A stretch of 64,000 bases of DNA from an uncultured Eubacteriales bacterium (lineage in GTDB: Bacteria; Bacillota; Clostridia; Oscillospirales; Acutalibacteraceae): positions 3,815-67,814 of the forward strand of contig CAKUFK010000008.1 of NCBI GenBank assembly GCA_934647945.1. The letters run 5' to 3'. Below, piece by piece: positions 2,781 to 32,005 of this stretch. The notes below the pieces were generated by a model that searched no databases, had not been told where the DNA came from, and was given only the letters and a program-made list of their open reading frames with translations. The stretch's first letter is position 1; every line of letters starts with the position of its first letter. The position numbers and the translations under genes are program-made.

Positions 2781-2884
2781 CCGATCACCTCCGCTCACGC
2801 TCCCGGCCGCGGCCGGAGCCGCGGGATGGGGTATACTGGAAAAAAACACCGGATTACGGGTATTCTTGCCCAAAAAAGAACTAT

Positions 2885-5053: not shown

Positions 5054-5144
5054 TGGCGGAGAGTTAGGGATTTGAACCCTAGGTACGGGATTACCGTACA
5101 CACGATTTCCAATCGTGCGCCTTCGACCACTCAGCCAACTCTCC
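5054..5144 (-). tRNA. tRNA-Ser (anticodon GGA), long variable arm, CCA encoded
   Basis: The reverse complement is GGAGAGTTGGCTGAGTGGTCGAAGGCGCACGATTGGAAATCGTGTGTACGGTAATCCGTACCTAGGGTTCAAATCCCTAACTCTCCGCCA. It has a 7-bp acceptor stem GGAGAGT/ACTCTCC, anticodon stem CACGA/TCGTG with loop TTGGAAA, and a T-arm TAGGG-TTCAAAT-CCCTA. Confidence 0.9.
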
Positions 5145-7029: not shown

Positions 7030-7037
7030 TTCTCCGT

Positions 7038-7153
7038 GTCGGCGCCTGCCTATTTTCCCGGGCCGCTTCCAGCCGAGTATCGTGGGCGCAAATGGGCTTA
7101 ACTGCCGTGTTCGGGATGGGAACGGGTGTACCCCCACCGCCATCGGCACCGAC
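7038..7153 (-). rRNA. rrf: 5S ribosomal RNA (stand-alone copy)
   Basis: The minus strand reads GTCGGTGCCGATGGCGGTGGGGGTACACCCGTTCCCATCCCGAACACGGCAGTTAAGCCCATTTGCGCCCACGATACTCGGCTGGAAGCGGCCCGGGAAAATAGGCAGGCGCCGAC. It carries the universal 5S core, and helix I closes as GTCGGTGCC/GGCGCCGAC. Length is 116 nt. Confidence 0.88.
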
Positions 7154-16752: not shown

Positions 16753-19700
16753 TTAGTCCACCACCGCGACATTTTCCTTGCCCAATATCGCCCTCAGCTC
16801 GCCTATCATCACATCGTTAACGTTCACCCAAAGGGCATGGGGAGCCCTCACCAATTTCCCGGAATCCGCATAGCGGAGGTAGAGCGGCTCCTCGCCGTCG
16901 AACACCCGCACCACCAGCTGCGCCCGTTTCCACTCCGGGGATTCGGACGACGGCACCCGCAGATACAGGCCGTGCCGGGCGGAAGGGAGCCGGCGGCCGT
17001 CCGGCGCCCGGACGGGCGCTGCGGAAGGAGCCGCGGGTGGAGACGGGTTCCCTGAAAGCCCGGGAATCGGACGGGGCAGGGCATCGGGCGGAGGGGCCTC
17101 ATCCAGGCGGCTCACGAGGATCTTCGGATCCTCGTCTTCCCGGACATTGATCCGGCCCCGCGCCACCACCACCCGGCCAGCCTGAAGCAGATGCCCGCAC
17201 TGGGCCAGGGCTTTGGGGAAGATCACCAGCTCGATGGAGCCCGCCATGTCTTCCAGCGTCGCATACGCCATCTGCGCGTTGCTTTTAGTGGATTTGACAT
17301 GGACGGACGAGAGCATCCCCAGCAGCAGGACCGTATCCCCGTCTGCGTACTCGGCCGGCCCCTCCCCCATCCCCTCTTCAAAGGACGCCGCGATCCGGTC
17401 GGTCCGGGCGGCCTTCATCCGCTCGTGGAGGGCAGTATAGGGTTTCATCGGGTTTCCGGTCAGATACATGCCGGAGACCTCTTTTTCCATGGCCAGAAGC
17501 TCGTCATAAGGGGCTTCGGGCAGCTCCGGCAGGACGGGTTCTCCCATAGCGGCATTGTCGGGATCGTCGAAAAACCCGAGCTGTCCCGCCAGATTCCGGC
17601 GGTTCTGATCGTCCAGAATCTGGAGCACCGTGTCGGAGGATTCCAGCATCTGGCGCCGGTTGGCGCCCAGGCCGTCGAGAGAACCGCATTTGATCAGGCT
17701 CTCCAGGGCCCGCCGGTTGAACTCCCGGTAAAGGGTCATCCGGCGGCAGAAATCGTAAAAGCTGCGGAAGGGCCCGTTTTCCTCCCGCTCCTTTACCAGT
17801 TCCGTAATCAGGCCCCGCCCGAGATTTTTGACCGCCAGCAGCCCGAAGCGGATATGATCCCCCGCCACGGTGAAGGCCGACACGCTCTCGTTGACCGAGG
17901 GAGGCAGCACCGGGATATGCAGCCGGTCGCATTCCCCGATGTATCCCGCCACCTTGCCCGAATCGAACACGCTGGTCAGCAGGGCGGCCATATATTCCCG
18001 GGGATAAAAGCATTTCAGATAAGCGGTCTGATAGGATACCGTCGCATAGGCAGCAGCATGGGATTTATTGAACGCGTAAGACGCGAAAGAGGCCATATCG
18101 TCGAAGACTGCGACCGCCACATTTTCGGGAATGCCGCGGCGTTCGCAACCCTCCACCACCACCGTTCCGTCCTCATCGGTCAGGCCGTGGAGGAAGATCT
18201 CCCGCTCCCGTTCCATCACATCGTGTTTTTTCTTGGACATGGCCCGGCGGACCACATCGGCCCGGCCGAAGGAATACCCCGCGAGCTCACGGAAAATCTG
18301 CATGACCTGCTCTTGATACACGATACAGCCGTAGGTCACGTTCAGAATCGGCTCCAGGGACGGGTGGAGATACCGCACCTCTTCCGGATGGTGACGGTTA
18401 TGGATATATTTCGGAATCGAATCCATCGGGCCCGGACGGAACAGGGCCGTGACCGCGACCAGATCCTCAAACCGGTCGGGCCTGAGCTGCAGCAGCACCC
18501 GCTTCATGCCGGGGGATTCATACTGGAACACCCCGTCGCTGTTGGCCTGGGACATCATCCGGTAGACCTCCGGGGCATCCTGGGGGATATCCTCGATGGA
18601 AAACCCGGGTTCACGCCGGCGGATCATCTCCACCGCGTCGGCGATGACGGTCAGATTGCGCAGGCCGAGAAAATCCATTTTCAGGAGACCCAGTTCCTCC
18701 AGGATCCCCATGGTATACTGGGTGGCGACGGAATCCCCGTTGAGGCAGAGGGGCACATACTCGCTCACCGGCTTCGCGGTGATGACCACCCCGGCGGCAT
18801 GGGTGGACGCGTGCCGCGGCATCCCCTCCACCTTGCGGGCCATCTCGATGAGTTCCCGGACCTGAGGATCGCCCTCATATTGCTCCCGCAGTTTTTTGGA
18901 CAGGGACAGGGCCCGGTCCAGCGTCATATTCAGCTCCCAGGGAACCGATTTGGCCACTGTATCCGCCAGGGCGTAGGGCAGGCCCAAGGCCCTGGCCACA
19001 TCCCGGATGGCGGCCCTCGCTGCCAGGGTTCCGAAGGTGACGATTTGGGCCACGTGGTCGGATCCGTATTTGCCGATAACGTAGTCGATGACCTGCTGCC
19101 GCTTCTCGTTGCAGAAATCGATGTCGAAATCGGGCATACTCACCCGTTCGGGGTTGAGGAACCGTTCGAACAGCAGGTTGTATTTGATGGGGTCGATGCC
19201 GGTGATGCCGATGCAATAGGCGCACAGGCTCCCGGCCCCCGAGCCCCGCCCCGGCCCCACCGGGATATCGTGGTCCTTGGCGTACTGGACAAAATCATGG
19301 ACGATCAGGTAATAATCCACGTATCCCATCTGCTCGATGGTGGCAAGCTCGTATTCCAGCCGCTCCGTGACCGCGGGATCGGGATGTTCGCCGTAATGCC
19401 GGCGCAGCCCCTCATAGCAGCGCTGCCGGAAATAGGCGGCGCTGTCCCCCCCGGGGGCGTCGAACCGGGGGAGCTGGGTCTGGCCGAAGGTCAGCTCGAC
19501 CCGGCAGCGCTCCGCGATCCGGACAGTGTTGTCGAATGCCTCGGGGAGTTCGGGAAACAGCGCCCGCATCTCCTCCTCCGATTTGAGGTAGAATTCCTCC
19601 GTCTCAAAGGCCATGGGATTGGGCTCGTCCACCGTGGTGTTGGTCTGGATGCAGATAAGGACCTTCTGCATCCGGGCGTCCTCTTTGGAGAGGTAGTGGG

Positions 19701-20316
19701 CGTCGTTGGTGCAGACGAGCGGGATGCCCGTCTCCCGGGACAAACGCACGATCTGCGGGCTGATGGCACGCTGCTCCTCCAGCCCGTGGTCCTGGAGCTC
19801 CAGGAAGAAGTTCTCCGGCCCGAATATGTCGCGGTATTCCAACGCGATCCGTTTGGCCCGGTCATAGTCTCCCTGGGTCAACGCCCGGGGGATCTCCCCG
19901 GCCAGACAGGCCGACAGGGCGATGAGCCCCTCATGGTATTCCTGCAGCAGCTCCCGATCCACACGGGGCCTGCCGTAGAAGCCCTCGGTCCAGGCGGCGG
20001 AGATCATCTTGACGAGATTGTGGTATCCCGTCTCATTCTCACACAGCAACACCAAATGGGCGTTCTCGCTGTCCGTGCCGTGAACCTTGTCGAACCGTGT
20101 GCGGGCCGCCACATACGCCTCGCAGCCGAGGATCGGCTTGATACCGGCTTTCTTCGCCTCTTTATAAAACTCCACCAGGCCGTACATGACGCCGTGATCG
20201 GTCACGGCCACGGCCTCCTGCCCCAACGCGGCCGCCCGCTGCACCAGCCCCGGAAGGCGGCAGGCACCGTCGAGCAGGCTATATTCGCTGTGTACATGCA
20301 GATGTACGAAAGCCAT
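16753..20316 (-). CDS. dnaE: DNA polymerase III alpha subunit (DnaE type)
   Basis: 1187 aa. PHP domain start MAFVHLHVHSEYSLLDGA, then the polymerase core (PDFDIDF), then a C-terminal OB region. Confidence 0.97.
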   Translation of the reverse strand: MAFVHLHVHSEYSLLDGACRLPGLVQRAAALGQEAVAVTDHGVMYGLVEFYKEAKKAGIKPILGCEAYVAARTRFDKVHGTDSENAHLVLLCENETGYHNLVKMISAAWTEGFYGRPRVDRELLQEYHEGLIALSACLAGEIPRALTQGDYDRAKRIALEYRDIFGPENFFLELQDHGLEEQRAISPQIVRLSRETGIPLVCTNDAHYLSKEDARMQKVLICIQTNTTVDEPNPMAFETEEFYLKSEEEMRALFPELPEAFDNTVRIAERCRVELTFGQTQLPRFDAPGGDSAAYFRQRCYEGLRRHYGEHPDPAVTERLEYELATIEQMGYVDYYLIVHDFVQYAKDHDIPVGPGRGSGAGSLCAYCIGITGIDPIKYNLLFERFLNPERVSMPDFDIDFCNEKRQQVIDYVIGKYGSDHVAQIVTFGTLAARAAIRDVARALGLPYALADTVAKSVPWELNMTLDRALSLSKKLREQYEGDPQVRELIEMARKVEGMPRHASTHAAGVVITAKPVSEYVPLCLNGDSVATQYTMGILEELGLLKMDFLGLRNLTVIADAVEMIRRREPGFSIEDIPQDAPEVYRMMSQANSDGVFQYESPGMKRVLLQLRPDRFEDLVAVTALFRPGPMDSIPKYIHNRHHPEEVRYLHPSLEPILNVTYGCIVYQEQVMQIFRELAGYSFGRADVVRRAMSKKKHDVMEREREIFLHGLTDEDGTVVVEGCERRGIPENVAVAVFDDMASFASYAFNKSHAAAYATVSYQTAYLKCFYPREYMAALLTSVFDSGKVAGYIGECDRLHIPVLPPSVNESVSAFTVAGDHIRFGLLAVKNLGRGLITELVKEREENGPFRSFYDFCRRMTLYREFNRRALESLIKCGSLDGLGANRRQMLESSDTVLQILDDQNRRNLAGQLGFFDDPDNAAMGEPVLPELPEAPYDELLAMEKEVSGMYLTGNPMKPYTALHERMKAARTDRIAASFEEGMGEGPAEYADGDTVLLLGMLSSVHVKSTKSNAQMAYATLEDMAGSIELVIFPKALAQCGHLLQAGRVVVARGRINVREDEDPKILVSRLDEAPPPDALPRPIPGLSGNPSPPAAPSAAPVRAPDGRRLPSARHGLYLRVPSSESPEWKRAQLVVRVFDGEEPLYLRYADSGKLVRAPHALWVNVNDVMIGELRAILGKENVAVVD

Positions 20317-20721
20317 CCGCCTTTCCCTCCTTGCGTATCCCGACCCGGGCCGTGTATATGGCCTATGGGGTTATGTCCAGCCAAATCCCCGGATACAAAG
20401 CCCTTATGCCATACTCGCCGGTTTGAAGTCCGCGTTCCCGCCGGCTTTCCTGAAAAGAACCCCGGGCCGGCTCCTGGCGAGTATAAATACCGGCGTGCTC
20501 CAGGGCCGAGAGCCTTTTTTGAACACCGGCTCAGGCGGCATTGCCCGAATCGGCGTCCATACCATAAGGGGCGGCGTCCCTAGGGCTTTTGGTGGCCATA
20601 CTATTATAACACAATTGCCGCCCCAGATAAAAGGCCTTTTAAGCGGGGCCCGCCCCGGCCGGGATCCCACCGGCATCGGAATTCTTTCCCATACGACCGG
20701 CAGGCCGGCATTTTCCTTTTC

Positions 20722-20895
20722 CTCACCGCTGTGGTAAATGGTTTTGATAATATCCTCGATGTCGGGTTCTTCCAGGGACAAATCCCGAATTTTCACCTGG
20801 CCGGACAGATCGGCGATCAGCTCCGCGGCGCTCATGTCGCGCTTGTTGAATTCGAAGCACACCCGGGCGCCCTCATTTTTGACCACGTCGGCCCG
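20722..20895 (-). pseudogene. Possible 3' remnant of an ABC-transporter ATP-binding gene
   Basis: The first ~55 codons of ORF 20404..20886 read VVKNEGARVCFEFNKRDMSAAELIADLSGQVKIRDLSLEEPDIEDIIKTIY. This resembles the C-terminal tail of COG4586-type ABC ATPases. No Walker motifs lie upstream, and the rest of the ORF is low-complexity read-through. Confidence 0.3.
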
Positions 20896-21099
20896 CGGAC
20901 ATGCCGTCCCCCCTCTCCAACATCAACCCCTGTTTTTATGCCGCAAAAAACAAAAGTTTGGTGCTATTATAGCATATTTTGCTGAAAAAGGAAGCCTTTT
21001 TTTGGCAATTTCCTAGATTCCTCCTGAAATCCGTACGTTCCCGCTGTCCGTCTCCGTCCCCCGCGGGAGATGAAAATCCCGGAAATTTTCAAAACCCTC

Positions 21100-21128
21100 T
21101 TGACGAAACCGCAAAACGTGTGTATAAT
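21100..21128 (+). promoter_or_regulatory. Sigma-A promoter of the Met T-box leader
   Basis: TTGACG-17 nt-TATAAT. Confidence 0.6.
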
Positions 21129-21134
21129 GCGGCT

Positions 21135-21457
21135 AAATCGATAGTGTCACAGACTTGGATGAGAAGAGTAAGCCTCTGCGTCATTTCCAGAGAGCCCGGG
21201 CAGCTGCGAACGGGCAATGACAACGCCGCTGAACATGGTCTCGGAGTCGCACGGCCAAAGCCCGGGAAAACCCGGCGCCAAAGCCGTGACGGGGGCGCCC
21301 GTTACCGCGCTATGCTATCGGCAGGCAGGGCCTGCCCGCAGCAGATGAGGTCCCATACCGCGAGGTAGGGATAAACCGGGGTGGTAACACGAAGCGTGGC
21401 TCTCGTCCCCGAACGGCATGGTGAAACCCATGCCGTTCGGCGGCGGGGGCCTTTTTG
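21135..21457 (+). promoter_or_regulatory. T-box riboswitch leader (probable Met specifier) with terminator
   Basis: Stem I elements: GGATGAGAAGAGTA (GA/K-turn plus AGUA), CCAGAGAG (AG bulge) and GCTGCGAA (distal loop). Candidate specifier AUG at 21235-21237 in GAACAUGG. T-box sequence GGGGTGGTAACACG at 21378-21391. Terminator CCCCGAACGGCATGG...CCCATGCCGTTCGG followed by CTTTTTG. Confidence 0.8.
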
Positions 21458-21667
21458 TTCCTGTCCCTTATCAAATCTCCAGCCGGCGGCGAATGGCGGC
21501 CCCTCTCCCCTTGGGCCGTCCTGCTGCCGCCCGGCCGCCGTCCGAAGAGGCGGAATACCGGCCGAAAATTCAAAAAGGCACCCGTATCATGCCGGCGAAT
21601 CCCGCGGGATTGTCGGAGCGCTCGTCCGTCCCGCCTGTCACATCGACTCAAGAAAGGCCGTGATCCT

Positions 21668-22423
21668 ATGGAACCCGCCATTCGCATCGAACACCTGACC
21701 AAGATTTTCCCCTCCGGCGGCGATGTGGCCGCTTTGCGGGACGTCAGCCTGGACATCGCGCCCGGCGACATCTTCGGCATCATCGGCATGAGTGGGGCCG
21801 GAAAGAGTACCCTGCTGCGGTGCATCGCCATGCTGGAAACCCCGACCGAAGGCCGGATTTCCATTGAGGGTGTCGATATCCGCAGCCTGAAAGGCCGGGC
21901 GGCGATCGCCCACCGCAAGGAGGTCGGCGTCATTTTCCAGGGCTATAACCTCCTGATGCAGCGCACGGTCCGGCGCAACGTCGCGTTCCCTCTCGAAATC
22001 GGCCGCCGCCCCAAACCGGAGATCCGGGAACGGGTGGAGGAACTGCTCCGTCTTGTCGGTCTCTCCGATAAGGCCGGCGCCTACCCCTCCCAGCTCTCGG
22101 GCGGACAGAAGCAACGGGTCGCCATCGCGCGCGCCCTCGCCAGCAACCCCAAAATCCTCCTGTGCGACGAACCCACCTCGGCCTTGGACGCTATGACGAC
22201 CGGCGCTATTCTCGACCTCCTGTGCGACATCAACCGGCGGCTGGGGGTAACGGTGGTGATCATCACCCACGAGATCGGGGTGGTCAAATCCATCTGCAAC
22301 CGGGTCGCGGTCATCGACGAGGGCCATATTGCCGAATGCGGCGACACTAAAACCATCTTCGCCGCACCGCAAAGCCGGATGACACGAATGCTGTTGGGGA
22401 TGAAAGGAGACGATGAGACATGA
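21668..22423 (+). CDS. metN: Methionine ABC transporter ATP-binding protein, short form without a NIL domain
   Basis: Part of ORF 21455..22423, start at ATG 21668 (MEPAIRIEHLTKIF). Walker A GMSGAGKST, signature LSGGQKQRVAIARAL, Walker B ILLCDEPTSALD. The protein ends about 25 aa after the H-loop region. Confidence 0.88.
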   Translation: MEPAIRIEHLTKIFPSGGDVAALRDVSLDIAPGDIFGIIGMSGAGKSTLLRCIAMLETPTEGRISIEGVDIRSLKGRAAIAHRKEVGVIFQGYNLLMQRTVRRNVAFPLEIGRRPKPEIRERVEELLRLVGLSDKAGAYPSQLSGGQKQRVAIARALASNPKILLCDEPTSALDAMTTGAILDLLCDINRRLGVTVVIITHEIGVVKSICNRVAVIDEGHIAECGDTKTIFAAPQSRMTRMLLGMKGDDET

Positions 22424-23100
22424 TCGAAACCCTGTCGGGTCTGTGGGACAAATACGGCATGATGCTGCTCGAGGGCACTGGTGCCACCCTGTACATGACC
22501 GCTGCCTCCGCCCTGTTCGCCTATCTCATCGGCCTTCCCCTGGGTGTGCTGATGATCGTGACCGCCAAAGGCGGCATCCGGCCCCATCCCGTGCTCAATT
22601 CCGTCCTGGGCTGGATCATCAACATCGGCCGCTCCATCCCCTTCATCATCCTGATCGTGGCCCTGATCCCCTTCACCCGGCTGATCACCGGCACCTCCAT
22701 CGGCCCGACGGCCGCCATTGTCCCCCTGGTCATCGGCGCCGCGCCCTTTGTCGCCCGGATGGTGGAAACCTCCCTCAAGGAGGTGGACGCCAAAGTGGTG
22801 GAGGCCGCGCAGACCATGGGCGCCACCGGCTGGCAGATCGTGTGGAAGGTCCTGCTCCCCGAATCCGTCCCTTCCCTGATCCGGGGCACCTCCATCTCCA
22901 CCATCACCCTGATCGGTTACTCCGCTATGGCCGGCACGGTCGGAGGCGGCGGGCTCGGGGATATCGCCATCCGGTATGGATACCAGCGGTATCAGCAGGA
23001 TGTGATGATCGTCACCATCATTCTGCTCGTGATCATCGTCCAGTTAATCCAGTTCGCCTTCGGCCTGCTGGCGTCCGCCATCGACAAACGCAACCACTGA
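22420..23100 (+). CDS. metI: Methionine ABC transporter permease
   Basis: 226 aa. Its start overlaps the metN stop by 4 nt (ATGA). The EAA-loop region EAAQTMGATGWQIVWKVLLPES is typical of MetI. Confidence 0.9.
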   Translation: MIETLSGLWDKYGMMLLEGTGATLYMTAASALFAYLIGLPLGVLMIVTAKGGIRPHPVLNSVLGWIINIGRSIPFIILIVALIPFTRLITGTSIGPTAAIVPLVIGAAPFVARMVETSLKEVDAKVVEAAQTMGATGWQIVWKVLLPESVPSLIRGTSISTITLIGYSAMAGTVGGGGLGDIAIRYGYQRYQQDVMIVTIILLVIIVQLIQFAFGLLASAIDKRNH

Positions 23101-23144
23101 GAAGAGACGAACAATCCTATTAAAACAAGAAAGAGGGATATCCC

Positions 23145-23942
23145 ATGAAAAACCTGAAACGCATCCTCATTGCTGCGGCCGCGGCCCTGCTGCTCCTTTC
23201 CCTGTCCGCCTGCGGCGCCAAACAGGACGACAAAACCATCCGGGTCGGCGCCTCCCCCGCGCCCCACGCCCAGATCCTCAAAGCCGCCGAGCCGCTGCTC
23301 AAGGAAAAGGGCTACACCCTCGTTATCCAGGAATTTTCCGATTATGTACTGCCCAACAACGCCTTGGAGGAAGGCTCTCTGGATGCCAACTTCTTCCAGC
23401 ACGAACCCTATCTGCTGGATTTCAATCAGGAAAACGGCACCCATCTGGTGGCCGTAGCCAACATCCATTATGAGCCGATGGGCGTTTACGCCGGCAAGAG
23501 CGCCTCGCTCGACAGCATCCCCTCCGGCGCGCAGATTGCCGTGCCCAGCGATACCACCAATGAGGCCCGCGCCCTGCAGCTTCTGGAAAAAATCGGCCTG
23601 ATCAAACTCAAGGAGGGGGCGGGGCTCACCGCCACCAAGAACGACATCGCGGACAATCCCCATCAAATCCGGATCGTTGAAACCGAAGCCGCCCAGGTGC
23701 CGCGCACCCTGCAGGACGTGGATTTTGCCGTCGCCAACGGCAACTACGCCATATCCGCCGGCGTCACCGACAAGGTACTGGTCAAGGAGGACTCCTCCAC
23801 AAAATACGGCAACATCGTCGCCGTGAAGGAGGGACAGGAATCTTCCGCGAAGACCACGGCCCTGGTGGAAGCTCTGACCTCCGACACGGTACGCCAGTTC
23901 ATCGTCGATGAATTCGGGGAGACCGCTGTCCCGATGTTCTGA
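23145..23942 (+). CDS. metQ: Methionine-binding lipoprotein (NlpA/MetQ family)
   Basis: 265 aa. Lipobox LSLSAC, then IRVGASPAPHAQIL...FQHEPYL...NYAI, typical of MetQ. Confidence 0.9.
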   Translation: MKNLKRILIAAAAALLLLSLSACGAKQDDKTIRVGASPAPHAQILKAAEPLLKEKGYTLVIQEFSDYVLPNNALEEGSLDANFFQHEPYLLDFNQENGTHLVAVANIHYEPMGVYAGKSASLDSIPSGAQIAVPSDTTNEARALQLLEKIGLIKLKEGAGLTATKNDIADNPHQIRIVETEAAQVPRTLQDVDFAVANGNYAISAGVTDKVLVKEDSSTKYGNIVAVKEGQESSAKTTALVEALTSDTVRQFIVDEFGETAVPMF

Positions 23943-23987
23943 TCCTCCATCCTGAGGATTCCGCCGGTCGAAACCTGATTCAGGCAG

Positions 23988-24036
23988 AAACAGCCCCCTT
24001 TCGGGACGAAACGTCCCAAAAGGGGGCTGTTTTTTT
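23988..24036. terminator. Strong bidirectional terminator between metQ and surface-protein paralog A
   Basis: CAGCCCCCTTTCGGGACGAAACGTCCCAAAAGGGGGCTG followed by TTTTTTT. Confidence 0.7.
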
Positions 24037-24049
24037 AACCCGTAGATAC

Positions 24050-25105
24050 CTATTCCTTGATCCAGGGCAGCTTTTTCAGCTTCCAGAGCACCAGAAGGAC
24101 GACGCCGGCGGCGACGAGGACACCCGCGACGATCCCGATGGGAATCCAGATCGAAAACGACGACTTCTCCCCTGCATCCCCGCCGCTTTCGGGATTCCCG
24201 GCCACGGCGGCGCTCGACGAATCGGCGTCACCGGCGGACGAGCCATCCCCCTGTAAGGGCGATGTCGTGGCGGCATCCGAGGCCGGATCGGTGCCGGAAG
24301 ACGGATCTTCCGATGCTGGAGCCGTCGTCGGCCCATCGGGGGTGGTGGACTTAGGAGGCGCCGTTGTGGCGTCCGGGGTATCCGGCGGAGAGGTCGGCTC
24401 CTCATAAGCGGGAGGCGCCGTCGTCGTCACAACCGGTGCCGAGGTGTCCGCGTCGGACACGAGGAGCTGGCCGGAGCTGTCGCCAAACGAAGCTTTCATG
24501 ATCAAGGTTTCGGGATTTTCGATATCCGCGACGTTGCTCACACCCTGGAGATCCTCCTCCTCCGCCCAGGAATACACGACCTCCCCGGCCGCGTTTTTCA
24601 CCTCAAAATTGCGGAAGGTCACTGTGCCGGTCGCCCAGAGCATCCCCATGTCTAACAGATAGTAATCCTGTAACGCTCCGTTGAGCCAGATTCCCTTGAC
24701 ATTGTCAAAGGTAATGGGATCGCCCTCCTTCAATCCAATATTATGTGTTTCGACTATTGAAGTCATTTTCACGTCGATCCAATCTGTGCTTTTTGTATAG
24801 TTGAACAGACCAATGGATCCCTTGGATTCTACCCGGCCATCCCATATATCCACTAAGACCAGGCCACCCACCTTTGTCTTTTTGAAATCTTCGATCTTTA
24901 CCTGCATACTGATGGTAAAAGGGCCGCCCGAACCAAATAGAGATTTGGGCAGATACTGCCGGATAAAGGGCTGCACGTCGCTGTTGGGGATGATGGTGAT
25001 CTGCTTGCCGGCGGATGCCGCCGACACGGACGATGCGGTAATACCTGTGAAAACCATTGTCAGGGCCGCCAAAACACAACCGAAACGCTTTCGAATAGAT
25101 CGCAT
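24050..25105 (-). CDS. Membrane-anchored surface protein, paralog A (signal peptide, beta-rich domain, Pro/Thr/Ser/Asp linker, C-terminal TM)
   Basis: 351 aa. AGGAGG lies 7 nt before the ATG. Signal peptide MRSIRKRFGCVLAALTMVFTGITASSVSAASA. Linker TTTAPPAYEEPTSPPDTPDATTAPPKSTTPDGPTTAP. C-terminal TM IWIPIGIVAGVLVAAGVVLLVLW followed by KLKK. Confidence 0.75.
   Translation of the reverse strand: MRSIRKRFGCVLAALTMVFTGITASSVSAASAGKQITIIPNSDVQPFIRQYLPKSLFGSGGPFTISMQVKIEDFKKTKVGGLVLVDIWDGRVESKGSIGLFNYTKSTDWIDVKMTSIVETHNIGLKEGDPITFDNVKGIWLNGALQDYYLLDMGMLWATGTVTFRNFEVKNAAGEVVYSWAEEEDLQGVSNVADIENPETLIMKASFGDSSGQLLVSDADTSAPVVTTTAPPAYEEPTSPPDTPDATTAPPKSTTPDGPTTAPASEDPSSGTDPASDAATTSPLQGDGSSAGDADSSSAAVAGNPESGGDAGEKSSFSIWIPIGIVAGVLVAAGVVLLVLWKLKKLPWIKE
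24052..24703. repeat. Direct repeat copy 1 (652 bp, no mismatch to 25239..25890 seen by eye)
   Basis: Line-by-line comparison of the two stretches at an offset of 1187 bp. Identity starts at the first base of the stop codon and ends inside the extracellular domain. Confidence 0.85.
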
Positions 25106-25236
25106 TTCATAGCCTCCTATTTCTTATCGGAAATGCCTCACTTCACCTGAAAATGAGATCTTAGCCGGAAGTCCTACTATCCATTTGGAGTGTCATTGAA
25201 AATCCCTCGTATATCTCCCGAGATATACGGGCTTTT

Positions 25237-26292
25237 TCATTCCTTGATCCAGGGCAGCTTTTTCAGCTTCCAGAGCACCAGAAGGACGACGCCGGCGGCG
25301 ACGAGGACACCCGCGACGATCCCGATGGGAATCCAGATCGAAAACGACGACTTCTCCCCTGCATCCCCGCCGCTTTCGGGATTCCCGGCCACGGCGGCGC
25401 TCGACGAATCGGCGTCACCGGCGGACGAGCCATCCCCCTGTAAGGGCGATGTCGTGGCGGCATCCGAGGCCGGATCGGTGCCGGAAGACGGATCTTCCGA
25501 TGCTGGAGCCGTCGTCGGCCCATCGGGGGTGGTGGACTTAGGAGGCGCCGTTGTGGCGTCCGGGGTATCCGGCGGAGAGGTCGGCTCCTCATAAGCGGGA
25601 GGCGCCGTCGTCGTCACAACCGGTGCCGAGGTGTCCGCGTCGGACACGAGGAGCTGGCCGGAGCTGTCGCCAAACGAAGCTTTCATGATCAAGGTTTCGG
25701 GATTTTCGATATCCGCGACGTTGCTCACACCCTGGAGATCCTCCTCCTCCGCCCAGGAATACACGACCTCCCCGGCCGCGTTTTTCACCTCAAAATTGCG
25801 GAAGGTCACTGTGCCGGTCGCCCAGAGCATCCCCATGTCTAACAGATAGTAATCCTGTAACGCTCCGTTGAGCCAGATTCCCTTGACATTATCAAACGTG
25901 ATGGGATCGCCGGATTTCATCCCGGCATTGTATTCCTCGCACACCGAGGTCATCTTTACGTCCACCCAGTCGGTGCTCTTGGTATAAGCACTCAGTTTGA
26001 CGACCGACTCGGATTCGACCCGGCCGTCCCATATGTTCACATAGACTTTCCCATTCACGTTCGTCCTTTTGAAGTTCTCCGCCTTCATCTGGACATGCAC
26101 GGTGAAGGGGCCGCCCGAACCGAACAGGTATTTGGGCAAAAATTGCCGGATGAAGGGCTGCTCATCGGTGTTGGGGATGATGGTGATTTGCTTGCCGGCG
26201 GATGCCGCCGACACGGACGATCCCGCAAACCCCACCCAAATCATCATGACTGCCAGCAGGATACACCAGAACCGCTTTCGAAAAAACCGCAT
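25237..26292 (-). CDS. Membrane-anchored surface protein, paralog B
   Basis: Part of ORF 25237..26322. Start at ATG 26292 (MRFFRKRFWCILL), preceded by AAGGAGG. 351 aa, same architecture as paralog A. The C-terminal ~217 aa are identical to A. Confidence 0.75.
   Translation of the reverse strand: MRFFRKRFWCILLAVMMIWVGFAGSSVSAASAGKQITIIPNTDEQPFIRQFLPKYLFGSGGPFTVHVQMKAENFKRTNVNGKVYVNIWDGRVESESVVKLSAYTKSTDWVDVKMTSVCEEYNAGMKSGDPITFDNVKGIWLNGALQDYYLLDMGMLWATGTVTFRNFEVKNAAGEVVYSWAEEEDLQGVSNVADIENPETLIMKASFGDSSGQLLVSDADTSAPVVTTTAPPAYEEPTSPPDTPDATTAPPKSTTPDGPTTAPASEDPSSGTDPASDAATTSPLQGDGSSAGDADSSSAAVAGNPESGGDAGEKSSFSIWIPIGIVAGVLVAAGVVLLVLWKLKKLPWIKE
25239..25890. repeat. Direct repeat copy 2
   Basis: See copy 1. 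The bases just outside differ: stop codon TAG in A and TGA in B, and the first internal mismatch is at 24704/25891. Confidence 0.85.
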
Positions 26293-26577
26293 TTTATTTC
26301 CTCCTTTGTAAAATAAAAACACACTTTTTATGACTTCGTAAATTGAACAGCTTTACCTTTTTTATTATAAATGGTAAGGATTGGAACACACAATAGCTCA
26401 ATTTGTCTTTTACTTATATTAATTTTGTCTTGTTATCGAAAAATTTTATACACCATGTGAAAAAAGTTTACTAGAATTCCGCCAATTCAAAGACAAGAGG
26501 ATTGAGAGACTTCCAGCTCATGTTTCCTGCCGGCAGCGCATATATATGGAACACTCATAAGAAAGGCGTGATGCTCG

Positions 26578-27486
26578 ATGAACTCCAATCCCCTTTCCGA
26601 ACAGAATTTGCAGGAGATGATGGAGAGATACCGTCAGGAGATGATGCAGCTGCGGCGGCGAAGCACATTGCCCGCCGAGGCTGGTGAAACGGCCGGAGGC
26701 TCCGCCACCGCCGTGGATAATGGGGACAGACTGGAAACGACACCCGAGCTTATCCCCCCTATCCCCATGCCCCTTGTCACAGACCAGCCCGAGACCGAAC
26801 CCATCCCCCCGGCGGATACAGGGACCAGGATGGCCCCGCTGCCCTTTACTCCTCCTGAAACCGTGGACGACCTGCCGCCAGCCCGGCAAAATCCACCCGC
26901 CGTGGCCGTAGAGCCCGCGGAGCCAGAATATGAGCTCCCCGGTGAGGAGGCGCCGGCCAATGATCTGGCGGACCCGGAAGGCGACATCAGCGCACAGCTC
27001 CGGGAGGAAATGATCGAGGGACGGCTGCCGGATGGGGAAAACGAGATGGACGTCACCGGCAACGCCCCCAACCTCATACCCGTGGAAACCACCTATCCCC
27101 CCGAGGATGACCTCGCCACCCTGCAGGTACGGGTGTATACCGCCCGCGGCGCCATCCCGATTCAAAATGCCGTGGTCACGATTACCGGCAAAAATCCGGG
27201 CAACGACCTGCAGTATGTGACCATCACCGATGTCAACGGCTTCAGCCCACCGGTGGTGCTGCCGGCCATGGACCGGAAGCTGACCCTCCGGCCTGCCGAG
27301 AATATCCCCGTGACCACCTATGACGTCCTGGTCGTCGCGCCGGGATATTTCCGGGTACGCAACCGCAACGTGCCGGTATACGGCGGCACCTCCGCCATCC
27401 AGCCGGTCGAACTCATCCCGTTGCCCGAAATGGTGGACGGGGGTGAGGAACAGACCTTCTATGGCTCCGCGCCACAGGATCTATGA
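26578..27486 (+). CDS. Pro/Glu-rich protein with a C-terminal carboxypeptidase-regulatory-like (Ig-like beta-sandwich) domain
   Basis: 302 aa. The N-terminus has no obvious signal peptide (MNSNPLSEQNLQEMMERYRQEMMQLRRR), followed by a long P/E/T-rich segment. Then LQVRVYTARGAIPIQNAVVTITGKNPGNDLQYVTITDVNGFSPPVVLPA, typical of CarboxypepD_reg-like folds. Confidence 0.6.
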   Translation: MNSNPLSEQNLQEMMERYRQEMMQLRRRSTLPAEAGETAGGSATAVDNGDRLETTPELIPPIPMPLVTDQPETEPIPPADTGTRMAPLPFTPPETVDDLPPARQNPPAVAVEPAEPEYELPGEEAPANDLADPEGDISAQLREEMIEGRLPDGENEMDVTGNAPNLIPVETTYPPEDDLATLQVRVYTARGAIPIQNAVVTITGKNPGNDLQYVTITDVNGFSPPVVLPAMDRKLTLRPAENIPVTTYDVLVVAPGYFRVRNRNVPVYGGTSAIQPVELIPLPEMVDGGEEQTFYGSAPQDL

Positions 27487-27505
27487 CACGAAAGGAGGCC
27501 TCCTC

Positions 27506-28915
27506 GTGACGGGAGAACCCTATATCCCCGAAACCATCACCGTCCATCTGGGCACCCCGGATTCGAGCGCTCAGAATGTCACCGTCTCCTTTCCGGATTA
27601 CATCAAAAATGTCGCGTCCAGCGAAATCTATCCCACCTGGCCGGAAAACGCCATCCGGGCGAATGTCTACGCCCAGATCTCCTATGCACTCAACCGGGTC
27701 TATACGGAATGGTACCGCAGCCGGGGCTACGATTTTGACATCACGAATTCCACCCGTTATGACCAGGCGTTTGTTCAGAACCGGGACATCTATGACAATG
27801 TAAGCGACATCGTCGACGAGATCTTCAACAATTACGTCCGCCGGCAGGGCAGCGTGGAGCCCTATTTCACCCAGTACTGCAACGGCACGACGGTCACCTG
27901 CGACGGACTCTCCCAGTGGGGAACCGTTCCGCTGGCCGAGCAGGGGTACACCCCCTATCAGATCCTGACCAATTATTATGGGGACGACATCGAGATCGTC
28001 ACCAACGCGCCGGTGAGGATCAACGCCCCCTCCTATCCCGGGGTGCCGCTGCGCATCGGAGACGCCGGCAACGACGTGCGCAGCAAGCAGATTCAGCTCA
28101 ACCGCATCTCCAACAACTACCCGGCCATTCCCAAAATCTATCCAGTGGACGGGGTGTTCGGTCAGGAGACGGAGGACGCGGTGAAGGAATTCCAGCGGAT
28201 ATTCAACCTCGCCCCCGACGGTGTCATCGGCAAACAGACCTGGTACCGGATCGCCTATCTTTACACCAGCGTCAAACGGCTGAGCGAGCTGAACAGCGAG
28301 GGCATCCCGTTCGAGGATGTCGAGCTGCAGTATTCCACCCTGCTGCGATATGGGGATACCGGGGACGAGGTGCGGATCATCCAGTATTTCCTCGCCGTGA
28401 TCGCGGATTTTTACGAGACCGTCCCGCCGGTGGATGTCACCGGCGTCTTCGACGATCAGACCCGGGCGGCCGTGGTCGCCTTTCAGAAAACTTTCGGCCT
28501 GGATCCGGACGGCGTGGTCGGCCGCCTGACCTGGCAGGATATGTACCGCGCTTACCGCGGCATCATCGACAGCATGGAACCGAGCGATATCCGGGTCGCG
28601 CTCTATCCCGGCACGGTGCTCCGACTCGGTTCCCAAGGGGAATACGTCAGTATCCTGCAGGAATATCTGAGTTTTATCGCCCAGAGCTTTCCCGAAATCC
28701 CTGATGTACCGGTAACGGGGGTATTCGGCAACCAGACCCAGGCTGCCGTCATTGCCTATCAAAACCTGATCGGTTTGGAGCCGAGCGGCAACGTCGGCCC
28801 CCTGACCTGGAACAGTATCGCCAGCCTCTACGGCGATCTCCGCTACGGCTTCGACAAGCAGCCGGGCCAGGATCCCGGATATACCATCCCGGCCACCAGC
28901 GCCGCCGGGACCTGA
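27506..28915 (+). CDS. SpoIID/LytB-like domain protein with three peptidoglycan-binding (PG_binding_1) repeats
   Basis: In frame with ORF 27320..28915. Start set at GTG 27506, 7 nt after AAAGGAGG. YIKNVASSEIYPTWPENAIRANVYAQISYAL resembles the SpoIID motif. There are three repeats of the type GDxGxxVxxxQxxLxxI....P.I...GVFGxxTxxAVxxFQxxxGLxPDGVVGxxTW. Confidence 0.7.
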   Translation: MTGEPYIPETITVHLGTPDSSAQNVTVSFPDYIKNVASSEIYPTWPENAIRANVYAQISYALNRVYTEWYRSRGYDFDITNSTRYDQAFVQNRDIYDNVSDIVDEIFNNYVRRQGSVEPYFTQYCNGTTVTCDGLSQWGTVPLAEQGYTPYQILTNYYGDDIEIVTNAPVRINAPSYPGVPLRIGDAGNDVRSKQIQLNRISNNYPAIPKIYPVDGVFGQETEDAVKEFQRIFNLAPDGVIGKQTWYRIAYLYTSVKRLSELNSEGIPFEDVELQYSTLLRYGDTGDEVRIIQYFLAVIADFYETVPPVDVTGVFDDQTRAAVVAFQKTFGLDPDGVVGRLTWQDMYRAYRGIIDSMEPSDIRVALYPGTVLRLGSQGEYVSILQEYLSFIAQSFPEIPDVPVTGVFGNQTQAAVIAYQNLIGLEPSGNVGPLTWNSIASLYGDLRYGFDKQPGQDPGYTIPATSAAGT

Positions 28916-28964
28916 TTCTCCACATCCATATTCAAGAAGCGGAATAGAAAGGCAGGATGCGCCT

Positions 28965-29483
28965 ATGGCCTATACAGACGAAGACAGACGCAACCATATC
29001 CGGGAAGTCCAGGAATATCTGCGTGCTATCTCCTTTTTTGACAAGCGGATTCCCCAAATCGGGGTGGACGGCATTTTCGGTGCCCGGACCGAGGAAGCTG
29101 TCGCCGCTTATCAGCGCGCCCGCGGCCTCGAGGAAACCGGTACCGTGGGCCGGGAAACATGGAACTATCTCGTGACCGAATACCGGATCATCCAAAACCT
29201 GCAGGCGCCGCCGCGCTGCGTCAGCCCTTTTCCTTCTATCACCTATGTCATCCGGCTGGGGGACGAGAGCCCGGTCGTGACCATCCTCCAGGTCCTGCTC
29301 GACGAGATCGGGAAACAATATCCCAATCTGCCGCGGGTGCCTATTACCAATGTATACGACGAACCGACGATGCAGGCGGTCAAGGCCTTTCAGCAAGCCT
29401 CCAGGCGGGAGGTCACCGGTGAGGTAGCCAAGGGGGACTGGGACCATCTGGCCGATGTGTATAATGCCCGTGTATCCCCGTGA
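28965..29483 (+). CDS. Peptidoglycan-binding domain protein (two PG_binding_1-like repeats)
   Basis: 172 aa. VQEYLRAISFFDKRIPQIGVDGIFGARTEEAVAAYQRARGLEETGTVGRETW, plus a second repeat LGDESPVVTILQVLLDEI...VYDEPTMQAVKAFQ. Confidence 0.75.
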   Translation: MAYTDEDRRNHIREVQEYLRAISFFDKRIPQIGVDGIFGARTEEAVAAYQRARGLEETGTVGRETWNYLVTEYRIIQNLQAPPRCVSPFPSITYVIRLGDESPVVTILQVLLDEIGKQYPNLPRVPITNVYDEPTMQAVKAFQQASRREVTGEVAKGDWDHLADVYNARVSP

Positions 29484-29595
29484 GCTCCTGTCCGGGCAGG
29501 GGGAACGTACCGGTTCCGGATCATCGGGCCCCGTTTGTCTTTTTTACCTATATTATTTATAAACGACCGGATAATCCAAACAGGAGAGTGGTTGT

Positions 29596-31137
29596 GTGAA
29601 AAAAGCCACTTTTATCAAAAACGCCTTCATCCTCACCGCCACTTCCCTGTTGCTGCGGACGATCGGGATCTTTTTCCGCATCTATATGTCCAACAAGGTC
29701 GGCGCCGAAGGCATGGGCTTGTATCAGCTGATTTTCTCGATCTACGTCCTGGGCTCCACCTTTGCCACCTCGGGGATCTCCACCGCCGTCACCCGCCTGG
29801 TTGCGGACGAACTGGTCTGCGGGACACCCAAATCGGTCCGTCATATCCTGCATCGCGCCATTGCGCTGAGTCTCCTGATCGGTGCCGCCTCCACCGCTCT
29901 GATTTTCTTTGGGGCGGATATCATCAGCGCGTACTGGATCAAGGACATGCGGGCGGTACCCGCCCTCAAGATCCTCTGCTTCAGCCTGCCGTCGATGGGC
30001 GTCTCCTCCTGCCTGCGCGGCTATTTCATCGCCCGCCGCAAGGTGGGCAACCCCTCCCGGGCGCAGATCCTGGAGCAGGCCGTCCGCATCGCGGTGGTCA
30101 TGCTTCTCATCGACCGGTTTGCCTCCATGGGGATCGCCTACGCCTGCATGGCCGTCATGATCGGGGACACGGTTGCGGAATTCGCATCCTGCGGCCACAT
30201 GGCCCTCGGCTATTTCCTGGACCGGAGGCGGCTGAAAAAGGAAAGCTTTCCCAGCCGGTCCCCCAAGCCCGCCTATCCGGTTGTCCGGCGGCTGCTGTCC
30301 ATCGCCGCCCCTATCACCGCCGGCCGGTATCTCAATTCCATCCTGCGTACCATTGAAAATATCCTGGTCCCGAGCTGTCTGGCTAAGTATACCTCCTCCA
30401 AAGAAACCGGGCTGTCCCAGTTCGGCATGCTCAAGGGCATGGCGATGCCCCTCATCTTCTTTCCCGCCTCGTTTCTCAATGCCCTGTCCACCCTCCTCGT
30501 CCCCGAGATTTCCTCGGCCGCGGCTCTCGGGCATAAGGGCACGGTCAACCGGGCGGTCAAGCATACCCTGCATATCACCCTTCTAGCCTCCATCCTCATC
30601 AGCGGCGTCTTTACCGTCTTCGCCAAAGAATTCGGCTTACTGCTCTACGGCAGCGAGGAGGTCGGCTTCTATTTGCAGGTCCTGGCGCCCTTAACTCCCA
30701 TCATGTACCTGGAAAGCGTTGTGGACGGTATCCTCAAAGGCCTGAACCAGCAGGTCAGTTCCTTAAAATACAGCGTGGCCGATTCCACCATCCGCATTGT
30801 CCTGATCTTTTTCCTCGTGCCGGTCCGCGGGATGGAAGGATTCCTGTTTATCATGGTGCTGAGCAATATCTTCACCTCCTTCCTCAATCTCCATCGCCTT
30901 CTCACCGTGACCGGCGTCAAGCTCGCATGGGGGCAGTGGATTCTCAAACCCATCCTGGCAATCACAACCGCCGGCGCCGTGGCGCTGCTGCTCGGCCGTT
31001 TCCTGCCGTTTGTGCATCTCTCTATGCTCGTCTGGCTGATCGCCGGCATCGCATGCCTGTGCCTGATCTACGGAATCCTGCTCCCCCTGCTCGGTTGTAT
31101 CACACGTGACGACCTGCATCGCAGCGTCAGCCACTGA
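29596..31137 (+). CDS. spoVB: Stage V sporulation protein B (MOP-family flippase)
   Basis: 513 aa with a GTG start. MKKATFIKNAFILTATSLLLRTIGIFFRIYMSNKVGAEGMGLYQLIFSIY is the characteristic SpoVB N-terminus. Polytopic membrane protein. Confidence 0.82.
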   Translation: MKKATFIKNAFILTATSLLLRTIGIFFRIYMSNKVGAEGMGLYQLIFSIYVLGSTFATSGISTAVTRLVADELVCGTPKSVRHILHRAIALSLLIGAASTALIFFGADIISAYWIKDMRAVPALKILCFSLPSMGVSSCLRGYFIARRKVGNPSRAQILEQAVRIAVVMLLIDRFASMGIAYACMAVMIGDTVAEFASCGHMALGYFLDRRRLKKESFPSRSPKPAYPVVRRLLSIAAPITAGRYLNSILRTIENILVPSCLAKYTSSKETGLSQFGMLKGMAMPLIFFPASFLNALSTLLVPEISSAAALGHKGTVNRAVKHTLHITLLASILISGVFTVFAKEFGLLLYGSEEVGFYLQVLAPLTPIMYLESVVDGILKGLNQQVSSLKYSVADSTIRIVLIFFLVPVRGMEGFLFIMVLSNIFTSFLNLHRLLTVTGVKLAWGQWILKPILAITTAGAVALLLGRFLPFVHLSMLVWLIAGIACLCLIYGILLPLLGCITRDDLHRSVSH

Positions 31138-31143
31138 TCACAC

Positions 31144-31173
31144 AAAAGCCCGCTCTGACAAGCGGGCTTTTTT
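31144..31173 (+). terminator. Intrinsic terminator after spoVB
   Basis: AAAAGCCCGCT-CTGACA-AGCGGGCTTTTTT. Confidence 0.75.
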
Positions 31174-31181
31174 AATGCCTC

Positions 31182-31210
31182 TTGAAATTTCGTCCAACAT
31201 GTCTTATACT
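31182..31210 (+). promoter_or_regulatory. Candidate sigma-A promoter at the left edge of the AT-rich segment
   Basis: TTGAAA-17 nt-TATACT. It lies about 240 nt upstream of the ECF sigma gene, so assigning it to that gene is tentative. Confidence 0.3.
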
Positions 31211-31337
31211 ATAGGAGTTACCACAATTTGTATGTATTTAAATTAGGAAATAAGGGTTTACCTTTGGCAATCCATAGAATAGTCAATAAAAAATTACTGA
31301 AATTATACAATCACTACCACAAATTCCCATTTTAATT

Positions 31338-31389
31338 GTGAAACACTCTCAATTTGCTTTATCGGCCGCCTATATATTCAGTGTTTCAC
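31338..31389. promoter_or_regulatory. Perfect 10-bp inverted repeat GTGAAACACT...AGTGTTTCAC (32-nt spacer) just upstream of the ECF sigma gene
   Basis: Arms at 31338-31347 and 31380-31389. The left arm contains a GAAAC element of the kind seen in ECF -35 boxes. Confidence 0.4.
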
Positions 31390-31447
31390 GATCCATAAAC
31401 GAAGAATAGACGAAATGCATTTCACATTAGAAGTGAGAGGTGATCCA

Positions 31448-32005
31448 ATGGCAGAAGGACCCATGGAAGAAGCCTATATGCGCTTCCTGTCGGGTGAAAT
31501 GGACGCATTCGAAATCATTGTGAAGGAACTGCAGATGCCGCTCATCCACTTCATCAATCGTTACATTGGCAACACATCGATTGCGGAAGACTTGGCAGAG
31601 AACGTGTTTGTGGAAATCCTGCTGCATCGGGACCGGTACAACTTCAAGGTCAAGCTGAAAACGTATTTGTTCACCATCGCGCGGAATACCGCCATCGATT
31701 ATATTCGGAAGAATAAACGGCTCGCTCCGTATGAGGTGGACGAGGATTTCAGCCCGGATACCCGGCTCCATGCGTCACCCGAGGAAGCGTATCTGGCAAA
31801 AGAGCAGCGAGATACGATCGTGGATCTGATCCAAACTGTAAAAGGCGATCAAGGAACCGCACTATACTTGACGTTGGTGGAAAACCTCTCAAACGAAGAA
31901 GCAGCCAGAGTTATGAAGAAGAGCAAGAAACAGATTGAGAATCTGTTGTTTCAGGGCAGACGGAAAATCCGTACTTTAATTGAGAAAGAAGGGATTCTCA
32001 CATGA
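31448..32005 (+). CDS. ECF-type (group 4) sigma-70 family sigma factor
   Basis: Part of ORF 31415..32005. Start at ATG 31448, after GAGAGGTGA. Region 2: IAEDLAENVFVEILLHRDRYNFKVKLKTYLFTIARNTAIDYIRK. Region 4: LYLTLVENLSNEEAARVMKKSKKQIENLLFQGRRKIR. Visibly lower GC than the flanking genes. Confidence 0.85.
   Translation: MAEGPMEEAYMRFLSGEMDAFEIIVKELQMPLIHFINRYIGNTSIAEDLAENVFVEILLHRDRYNFKVKLKTYLFTIARNTAIDYIRKNKRLAPYEVDEDFSPDTRLHASPEEAYLAKEQRDTIVDLIQTVKGDQGTALYLTLVENLSNEEAARVMKKSKKQIENLLFQGRRKIRTLIEKEGILT

Follow-up and report, generated by a model that had tools for sequence, protein, structure and literature searches.

The window analysed here is a stretch of 64,000 nucleotides (nt) from an uncultured Eubacteriales bacterium (contig CAKUFK010000008.1), and within it two adjacent paralogous genes for surface proteins, designated A and B, are the subject of this work. 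All coordinates are positions in the window, and nucleotide numbers within the genes are counted from each ATG. In the list of open reading frames gene A (24050-25105) and gene B (25237-26292, from the ATG at 26292) lie head-to-tail on the minus strand and each encodes 351 amino acids (aa), B being the upstream and A the downstream copy. The spacer of 131 bp that separates them (25106-25236) contains a hairpin (25206-25231) just 3' of the B stop codon and the ribosome-binding site of A (AGGAGG, 25118-25113); that of B is AAGGAGG (26306-26300). Low-level homology between the two copies reaches about 13 bp 5' of each ATG, so the repeat unit is the gene together with its ribosome-binding site. 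The sequences 3' of the two stop codons are unrelated, with 5-8 of 30 bases matching.

Both proteins begin with a hydrophobic signal sequence ending in VSA|AS (aa 1-29), which is of type a in A (25019-25105) and of type b in B (26206-26292). It is followed by an ectodomain of about 190 aa that is rich in beta strands in the AlphaFold2 model. The front of this ectodomain (aa 30-134) belongs to a type here called alpha in A (24704-25018) and beta in B (25891-26205). Its rear carries in both copies the same module, x (nt 548-700), which spans the last beta-hairpin of the domain and the start of the linker (24406-24558 in A and 25593-25745 in B). The linker itself has 100 aa (aa 219-318; 24152-24451 in A and 25339-25638 in B), 76% of which are Ala, Ser, Pro, Thr or Asp. 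The proteins end in a hydrophobic helix (about aa 319-343) and the short basic tail KLKKLPWIKE (together aa 319-351; 24053-24151 in A and 25240-25338 in B). The linker and this C-terminal part were delimited by composition and by hydropathy, respectively, and in B also by identity to A. No LPXTG motif is present, the sequence ahead of the helix being ...GDAGEKSSFSIW, and Gram_pos_anchor was unmatched in the Pfam scan, which points to a plain single-pass type-I membrane anchor. Judged from their sequences, A and B are thus single-pass type-I membrane proteins with a head held out on a mucin-like stalk. A preliminary description of this DNA had put forward the same order of signal peptide, beta-rich domain, Pro/Thr/Ser/Asp linker and C-terminal transmembrane helix, and composition, hydropathy and the model agree with it. 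Within the linker-coding region a motif of 23 nt occurs twice with a spacing of 96 nt (24318-24340 and 24414-24436 in A; 25505-25527 and 25601-25623 in B), the two occurrences being 78% identical, so that the stalk shows traces of internal repetition.

The two genes share a tract of perfect identity. An exact comparison of the assembled sequence showed that 24052-24703 and 25239-25890 agree at 652 of 652 bp, without a mismatch and with an offset of 1187 bp. The 3' limit of the tract is the first base of the stop codon (the stops themselves differ, TAG in A and TGA in B), and codons 135-351 lie within it. Its 5' limit lies after codon 134, right ahead of ...NVKGIW, and does not coincide with a domain border, so that besides the linker and the anchor the tract takes in aa 135-218, the last 40% or so of the globular domain. 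Codons 1-134 (402 nt) of A and B, once aligned, are only 70.6% identical in nucleotides and 67% in protein, with a dS of about 1.0-1.2 and a dN of about 0.25. With a random placement of the 118 differences, the chance of a gap of at least 652 bp between them would be P <= 4e-48. The extent of the tract, its two limits and the drop in identity upstream had been read by eye in the preliminary description and hold under exact comparison, as does its remark that copy A is richer in AT upstream of the tract. The GC content of the diverged part is 0.47-0.48 in A vs 0.54 in B, and at third codon positions (GC3) the diverged front of A has 0.58 and that of B 0.76, the values for B, the identity tract and six neighbouring genes being 0.74-0.87. 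Weaker codon selection, a foreign origin or a lack of GC-biased conversion are candidate causes of the low GC3 of the A front. The downstream copy of a related lineage (L024) also has a lower GC3 than its partner (0.67 vs 0.74).

Tandem pairs of the same kind were found in L010 (MGYG-HGUT-04076), L019 and L024. Four lineages were compared segment by segment, setting paralogues within a genome against orthologues between genomes. Over aa 30-134 the paralogues are 71-76% identical and the orthologues 77-90% (77-86% among upstream copies and 83-90% among downstream copies). In the linker the order is reversed, with 100, 89, 84 and 82% for the paralogues and 52-80% for the orthologues, and the transmembrane helix with its tail follows the linker (84-100% and 72-87%). 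In all four lineages, therefore, the front groups by gene position and the linker and anchor group by genome. This opposite grouping indicates that the duplication predates the lineages and that the 3' part was homogenised separately in each of them.

Such a pattern might be sought in selection only, that is, in strong purifying selection acting on stalk and anchor after an old duplication and without recombination. The transmembrane segment is indeed conserved at the protein level across lineages (dN/dS 0.01-0.08). Nevertheless the 217 codons of the tract hold 0 synonymous differences, compared with the high dS of the first 134 codons. The linkers have a dS of 0-0.41 between paralogues and of 0.58-1.2 between orthologues, the latter differing at 20-48% of their nucleotides, and no part of the gene evolves faster between species than the linker. 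Homogenised synonymous sites exclude selection at the protein level as the cause, and with these data the explanation by purifying selection was rejected, its probability being negligible.

The front half tells a different story from the one first proposed. The preliminary description had seen in it a diversification of the exposed half. The split between the two fronts, however, predates the four lineages, and each type is conserved between them, the dN/dS being 0.07-0.17 between orthologues of either type and 0.19-0.36 between alpha and beta paralogues. The 31 substitutions that distinguish alpha from beta show no preference for loops: 16 of them fall in strands, which account for 48% of the region, and strands and loops are affected evenly. 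On these grounds positive diversifying selection was rejected for the front half. The conservation of each type between lineages argues for two maintained functions rather than for diversification.

Strains of the species of the window differ in the rear of the domain (nt 548-700), which occurs as module x or as module y or y', about 74% identical to x. Both copies carry x in the window and in three independent metagenome assemblies (L012, L013 and L015), which agree with the window at every base of both genes, the 652-bp tract included, apart from one single-nucleotide polymorphism (SNP). In L001 and L030, a long-read-like assembly, x is found upstream and y' downstream, and their two copies are 99.3% identical over nt 403-547, 74% over nt 548-700 and 97.4% over nt 701-1053. 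The third state, y' in both copies, was found in L026 (ERZ825896 NODE_7837, 1643-3885), where the only difference between the copies from nt 403 onwards to the stop is one base in the linker; this strain of the species of the window presents the mirror image of the x/x state. A SNP at nt 483 has the reference base in both copies of the window, the alternative base in both copies of L013, and the reference base upstream with the alternative base downstream in L001. Moreover L001, L030 and L004-L006 contain an alpha or gamma copy with a different y segment in the region of the tract. The presence of y or y' at the island 24406-24558 of A in L001/L030, L005, L006 and L026 reveals which sequence would have been overwritten in the window. 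In L024 and L010 the upstream copy has x-like and the downstream copy y-like sequence. As x is thus native to the upstream copy, B (25239-25890) would have been the donor and A (24052-24703) the recipient in the window, and in L026 the direction would have been the reverse.

The public proteins of this family can be described as combinations of modules, with a signal peptide of type a, b or c, a front of type alpha, beta or gamma and a rear of type x, y, y' or hybrids of these. The gamma front corresponds to alpha with a beta-like patch, and conversion patches are seen in the front half of other strains as well. The view, implied at the outset, that the stalk is constant and the head variable is not supported, since the tract enters the head in the window and the patches of other strains lie in the front half. 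One such protein (P0005, from L009) is a "protein" of 126 aa with the C-terminal tail ...VSYTHLTLPTILRV, which we take to be translated Nextera adapter read-through, the end of the L009 contig presumably being adapter and not gene.

The reality of the pair has to be considered before a mechanism is proposed, since the 3' halves of two genuine copies could have been made identical by repeat collapse or consensus polishing, or in the extreme form the duplication could be a mis-join. A repeat of 652 bp exceeds the length of an Illumina read, and short-read assemblers can put one collapsed repeat sequence into both copies, so that the "perfect" identity could hide a few differences. Moreover, the assembly L014 breaks within the repeat with 100 Ns, another contig at this locus (L028; CDZT01015505.1, 1-1927) is a self-looping chimera, L013 has the same SNP in both copies, as collapse would also yield, and some of the mosaics are known from short contigs alone and are possibly assembly chimeras. 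However, L001 (ERZ1761048), a contig of 2.75 Mb with indel errors of the long-read type, is collinear with the window (19221-32151) at 98% identity and contains both genes, and a tandem pair of the same spacing occurs in L001/L030 and in three other lineages. Copies that differ are also kept apart by the assemblies, as in the island of L001 (74% identical) and the single linker difference of L026, and no orphan y-type sequence was found in the window. Several studies have yielded public contigs that encode the exact A protein, 15 in all and the longest of 153 kb, and the exact B protein is encoded on 24. With the pair present in the long-read L001, in three other lineages and in independent assemblies, the tandem arrangement is by all these sequences real, and an artefactual identity of the tract is very unlikely.

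Gene conversion between the two copies had been suggested from the tract alone. It agrees with the grouping of linker and anchor by genome and of the front by position, with the homogenisation of synonymous sites and with the differences between strains in extent and direction. The account that we consider probable is the following. A and B would be an old tandem duplicate pair in an uncultured human-gut bacterium of the Ruminococcaceae type, the duplication being older than at least four related lineages. Purifying selection would have kept the fronts of their ectodomains (aa 30-134) apart, alpha and beta each being a stable type. The 3' part, in turn, would have been homogenised repeatedly by homologous, non-reciprocal recombination between the copies, that is, by intrachromosomal gene conversion. 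The latest conversion in the lineage of the window would have copied B onto A over at least nt 548-924 and as far as the stop codon, where homology ends. This event would have erased the native y rear module of A, and with this module erased the perfect tract reaches 652 bp.

The limits of the tract can be understood on the same basis. On the 3' side the tract simply stops where homology does, at the stop codon. On the 5' side it ends within a block (nt 379-547, ...GDPITFDNVKGIWLNG...) which hardly varies across all alleles and lineages. Further upstream the copies diverge by about 29% and share no exact match longer than 33 nt. Divergence of this order without long exact matches makes a poor substrate for RecA-type homologous strand exchange, and 5' of the block it would block the exchange. 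Selection probably also removes convertants of the front half.

The x rear of A could alternatively have arrived by homologous recombination with the DNA of another strain, as a cassette swap, and not from B. The alleles of the population are combinatorial mosaics, the alpha-x combination is present on 52 contigs among those listed and could have spread between strains, and variants of the linker SNPs recur in both alpha and beta proteins. Against such an import, A equals B over the whole tract, including the strain-specific SNPs of the linker, which is expected from a donor 1.2 kb away. Furthermore an imported allele would itself still need a conversion from B to A somewhere, x being native to the upstream copy in other lineages. 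We regard the import as unlikely, and conversion within the chromosome as the better account of the tract.

Programmed antigenic or phase variation, in which an expressed copy draws on a donor cassette and the exposed protein changes at high frequency, also deserves mention, as these are surface proteins whose modules have been shuffled between strains in both directions. In addition, the longest exact match in the 5' part of the genes, of 33 nt (nt 72-104), coincides with the breakpoints between signal peptide and body. However, A and B are complete genes, each with its own ribosome-binding site, and the scans for repeats, for promoters and terminators and for Pfam domains of the neighbours found no silent cassettes, invertible elements, recombinase genes or simple-sequence tracts nearby. 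The fronts have remained stable beyond species splits, as the low dN/dS of the orthologues indicates, and just a handful of haplotypes was seen. A programmed system is accordingly highly improbable.

A direct repeat of this kind would also allow changes in copy number, and recombinational deletion at the pair is plausible from the sequences of related genomes. One of these, L011 (6411-7463; USDZ01000055.1, UMGS1623), has a single gene of the family where L019 (4001-6280), about 95% identical in the flanks, has two. The part of this gene that encodes the signal peptide is 100% identical to the upstream copy of L019, and its body is 90-97% identical to the downstream copy. It may be the product of an unequal crossover or, equally, of a collapsed assembly at low coverage (6.5x). 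An expansion to three copies in L028 was considered and rejected, as this contig loops on itself with identical ends. Its segments 343-678 and 1570-1905 are identical open reading frames, and its gene joins a front of the downstream type to a rear of the upstream type. By its sequence the contig is a repeat-induced assembly cycle and not a third copy, and short contigs at this locus can accordingly be chimeric. In L005 (ERZ27236813 k141_212636, 1165-2425) the sequence past about nt 640 of A is 100% identical to the window at 33695-32573 and 39784-39683, and this junction is either a chimeric join or a rearrangement.

The surroundings of the pair are occupied by housekeeping genes, as seen in the Pfam scan of the neighbours. 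On one side lie dnaE and metNIQ, and between the convergent metQ and A there is a 21-bp inverted repeat with T-runs on both sides (23988-24032) that is, from its sequence, likely to be a bidirectional terminator. On the other side follow a conserved protein of 302 aa, a SpoIID/PG_binding protein, a PG_binding protein and a SpoVB-like flippase. The ORF for the 302-aa protein (26578-27486, plus strand) has no Pfam match, is divergent from B and is the constant upstream neighbour of the pair in all related lineages (L001, L007, L010, L012 and L019). A sigma-70 scan found no promoter for A or B; the sequence TTGTGT-18-TATAAT at 26393-26364 was spotted by eye only and is not relied on. Elsewhere in the window there is a 5S rRNA gene (7037-7153, minus strand, 89 bits), with no 23S or 16S match within the 64 kb, which makes it seem separate from an rRNA operon, and a long-arm tRNA of 88 nt (5057-5144, minus strand) 2 kb from it. 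The nearest species-representative genomes are human-gut metagenome-assembled genomes labelled uncultured Ruminococcaceae, MGYG-HGUT-04076 (L010) and UMGS1623 (L011), whose flanks are about 81% identical to the window.

The globular part of A and B was not matched in scans of Pfam and NCBIfam, which returned only compositional matches (Podoplanin, Syndecan) to the linker and transmembrane helix. A Pfam scan of 30 members of the family likewise gave nothing but compositional matches, and a profile search of the sequences in the PDB gave nothing for the globular domain. A word-indexed search for homologues gave 7 proteins only, and the family emerged with an exhaustive HMMER search and an exact-cluster look-up. 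At a threshold of E <= 1e-3 the former picked out 66 relatives from 1.84 billion cluster representatives, and most of these relatives have 330-400 aa and the same architecture. AlphaFold2 gave a poor model with an alignment of 5 sequences (pLDDT 64.6). With 30 sequences it predicted a beta-sandwich consisting almost entirely of beta strands, with a pLDDT of 95.8 and a pTM of 0.91. The best matches of this model in Foldseek were carbohydrate-binding modules (CBMs), namely CBM70 (4d0q), the CBM of PbXyn10C (4mgq) and CBM4/22/28/29, and they are weak, with template modelling (TM) scores of 0.41-0.52. No match in the PDB had an E-value below 1e-3 and no specific structural relative is claimed. The search against BFVD gave only generic jelly-roll modules of phage tail proteins. 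The earlier guess of a jelly-roll or CBM-like sandwich is consistent with the confident model and with CBMs being its top, if weak, matches, although by Pfam, NCBIfam and PDB sequences the domain belongs to no described CBM family. The ectodomain represents an undescribed family whose predicted fold is a CBM-like beta-sandwich.

Distant homologues give an indication of what this domain may do. In P0151-P0153 it stands N-terminal to a dockerin, CE2_N and a GDSL esterase (hhalign probability 98.4% for P0151) and in P0029 N-terminal to a dockerin and DUF4838 (97.3%). The window proteins have no catalytic domain, and fusion to enzymes is seen in distant homologues only. The stand-alone relatives P0004 (52% identical) and P0111 (36%) are encoded among sugar-binding proteins, permeases and DUF4838 genes. 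Their loci (L022/L023, 1-17035, and L002, 1-7062) contain SBP_bac_1, several BPD_transp_1 permeases, DUF5696 and DUF4838 genes, and by gene content have the look of uncharacterised loci for glycan utilisation in gut Firmicutes. DUF4838 provides the catalytic domain in two enzyme families, GH163, with complex N-glycans as substrates, and GH185, with 6-sulfo-GlcNAcase activity (PMC10570127).

Taken together, the CBM fold class, the enzyme fusions of homologues and the relatives in sugar loci suggest, tentatively, that the ectodomain is a glycan binder. The stalk would then hold a CBM-like glycan-binding head away from the wall, and alpha and beta may differ in their ligand. Several points speak against this function. 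The Foldseek matches are weak (best E 2.6e-3, with the low TM scores given above), the pair of the window sits between metNIQ and sporulation/cell-wall genes outside any sugar locus, the substitutions between alpha and beta show the even spread described above, and no ligand-binding residues were identified. A further and more doubtful proposal is that the domain defines a new CBM family with about 66 occurrences and the signature GGPF...W...RNF-x-I-x-NAAG-x-VVYS-x-D-x-D, that alpha and beta are two selected ligand specificities and that their stalks are interchangeable by conversion.

The domain resembles CBM70 (4d0q), the CBM of PbXyn10C (4mgq) and CBM4/22/28/29 in its predicted fold class, and in dockerin-bearing CE2 esterases and DUF4838 enzymes its distant homologues are placed like an accessory module. 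Unlike the described CBMs it has no CBM sequence match in Pfam or the PDB, its structural similarity to them is low, the module makes up the whole ectodomain of a stand-alone membrane protein, and its carbohydrate binding is putative. Surface glycan-binding proteins (SGBPs) encoded beside sugar importers include the SusE/F-like SGBPs of Bacteroides and the CBM-bearing surface proteins of Roseburia and Eubacterium. P0004 and P0111, beside SBP_bac_1/permease genes and DUF4838 (GH163/GH185-type) genes, resemble such loci, as expected of a capture protein for glycan uptake. The pair of the window differs from them in its position between metNIQ and sporulation/cell-wall genes and in its anchor, which is a transmembrane helix and neither a lipid nor an LPXTG motif.

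Genetically, the pair can be compared with two well-known systems. The mrp-emm-enn genes of Streptococcus pyogenes are paralogous surface genes arranged head-to-tail; their C-terminal wall/membrane parts are conserved, their N-terminal parts vary, and recombinant chimeras occur. The M-like proteins form coiled coils and are attached by LPXTG sortase anchors, whereas the window proteins have a predicted beta-sandwich head, a mucin-like stalk and a plain transmembrane anchor, and the N-terminal parts, hypervariable in the M-like proteins, are conserved in the pair of the window. In Helicobacter pylori intragenomic gene conversion among babA, babB and babC makes chimeras, and strains differ in the chimera they carry (PMC4552749). 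The two systems share paralogous surface genes with near-identical end regions, a diverged part (which in bab is ligand-binding) and conversion chimeras that vary by strain. The bab genes, however, encode outer-membrane beta-barrel adhesins at dispersed loci of a Gram-negative pathogen and combine conversion with phase variation by CT repeats. The pair described here consists of adjacent direct repeats in a gut Firmicute and encodes single-pass membrane-anchored proteins of unrelated sequence, with no repeat-based switch. It is therefore distinct from the bab and M-like genes in its type of protein and anchor, in its tandem arrangement in an uncultured gut Firmicute, in having no switch element and in the long-term conservation of its diverged parts.

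Gene conversion between paralogous surface-protein genes is a known process, and the locus would be a new example of it in an uncharacterised protein family. To our knowledge such conversion is familiar in pathogens and has rarely been documented in uncultured gut commensals. A single locus would here display an old duplication, heads held apart by selection, a stalk and anchor homogenised in four lineages, and strains at the states x/x, x/y' and y'/y'. The locus is also a trap for short-read assembly and strain typing, and the metagenomic protein clusters derived from it are mosaics, some of them artefacts.

If the glycan-binding interpretation is true, gut Oscillospirales would use the same domain both as a stalked glycan-capture protein in the membrane and, attached to cellulosomal CE2 and GH163/GH185-type enzymes, in the role of an accessory module. 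Given the GH163/GH185-type enzymes that accompany its relatives, the ligands are possibly host N- or O-glycans. Conversion would then now and again reassort the sub-modules of the head between strains, which would amount to a simple way of tuning the binding of host or diet glycans in the human gut. The protein can reasonably be considered a candidate member of a new CBM family and a candidate surface determinant of an abundant uncultured gut bacterium.

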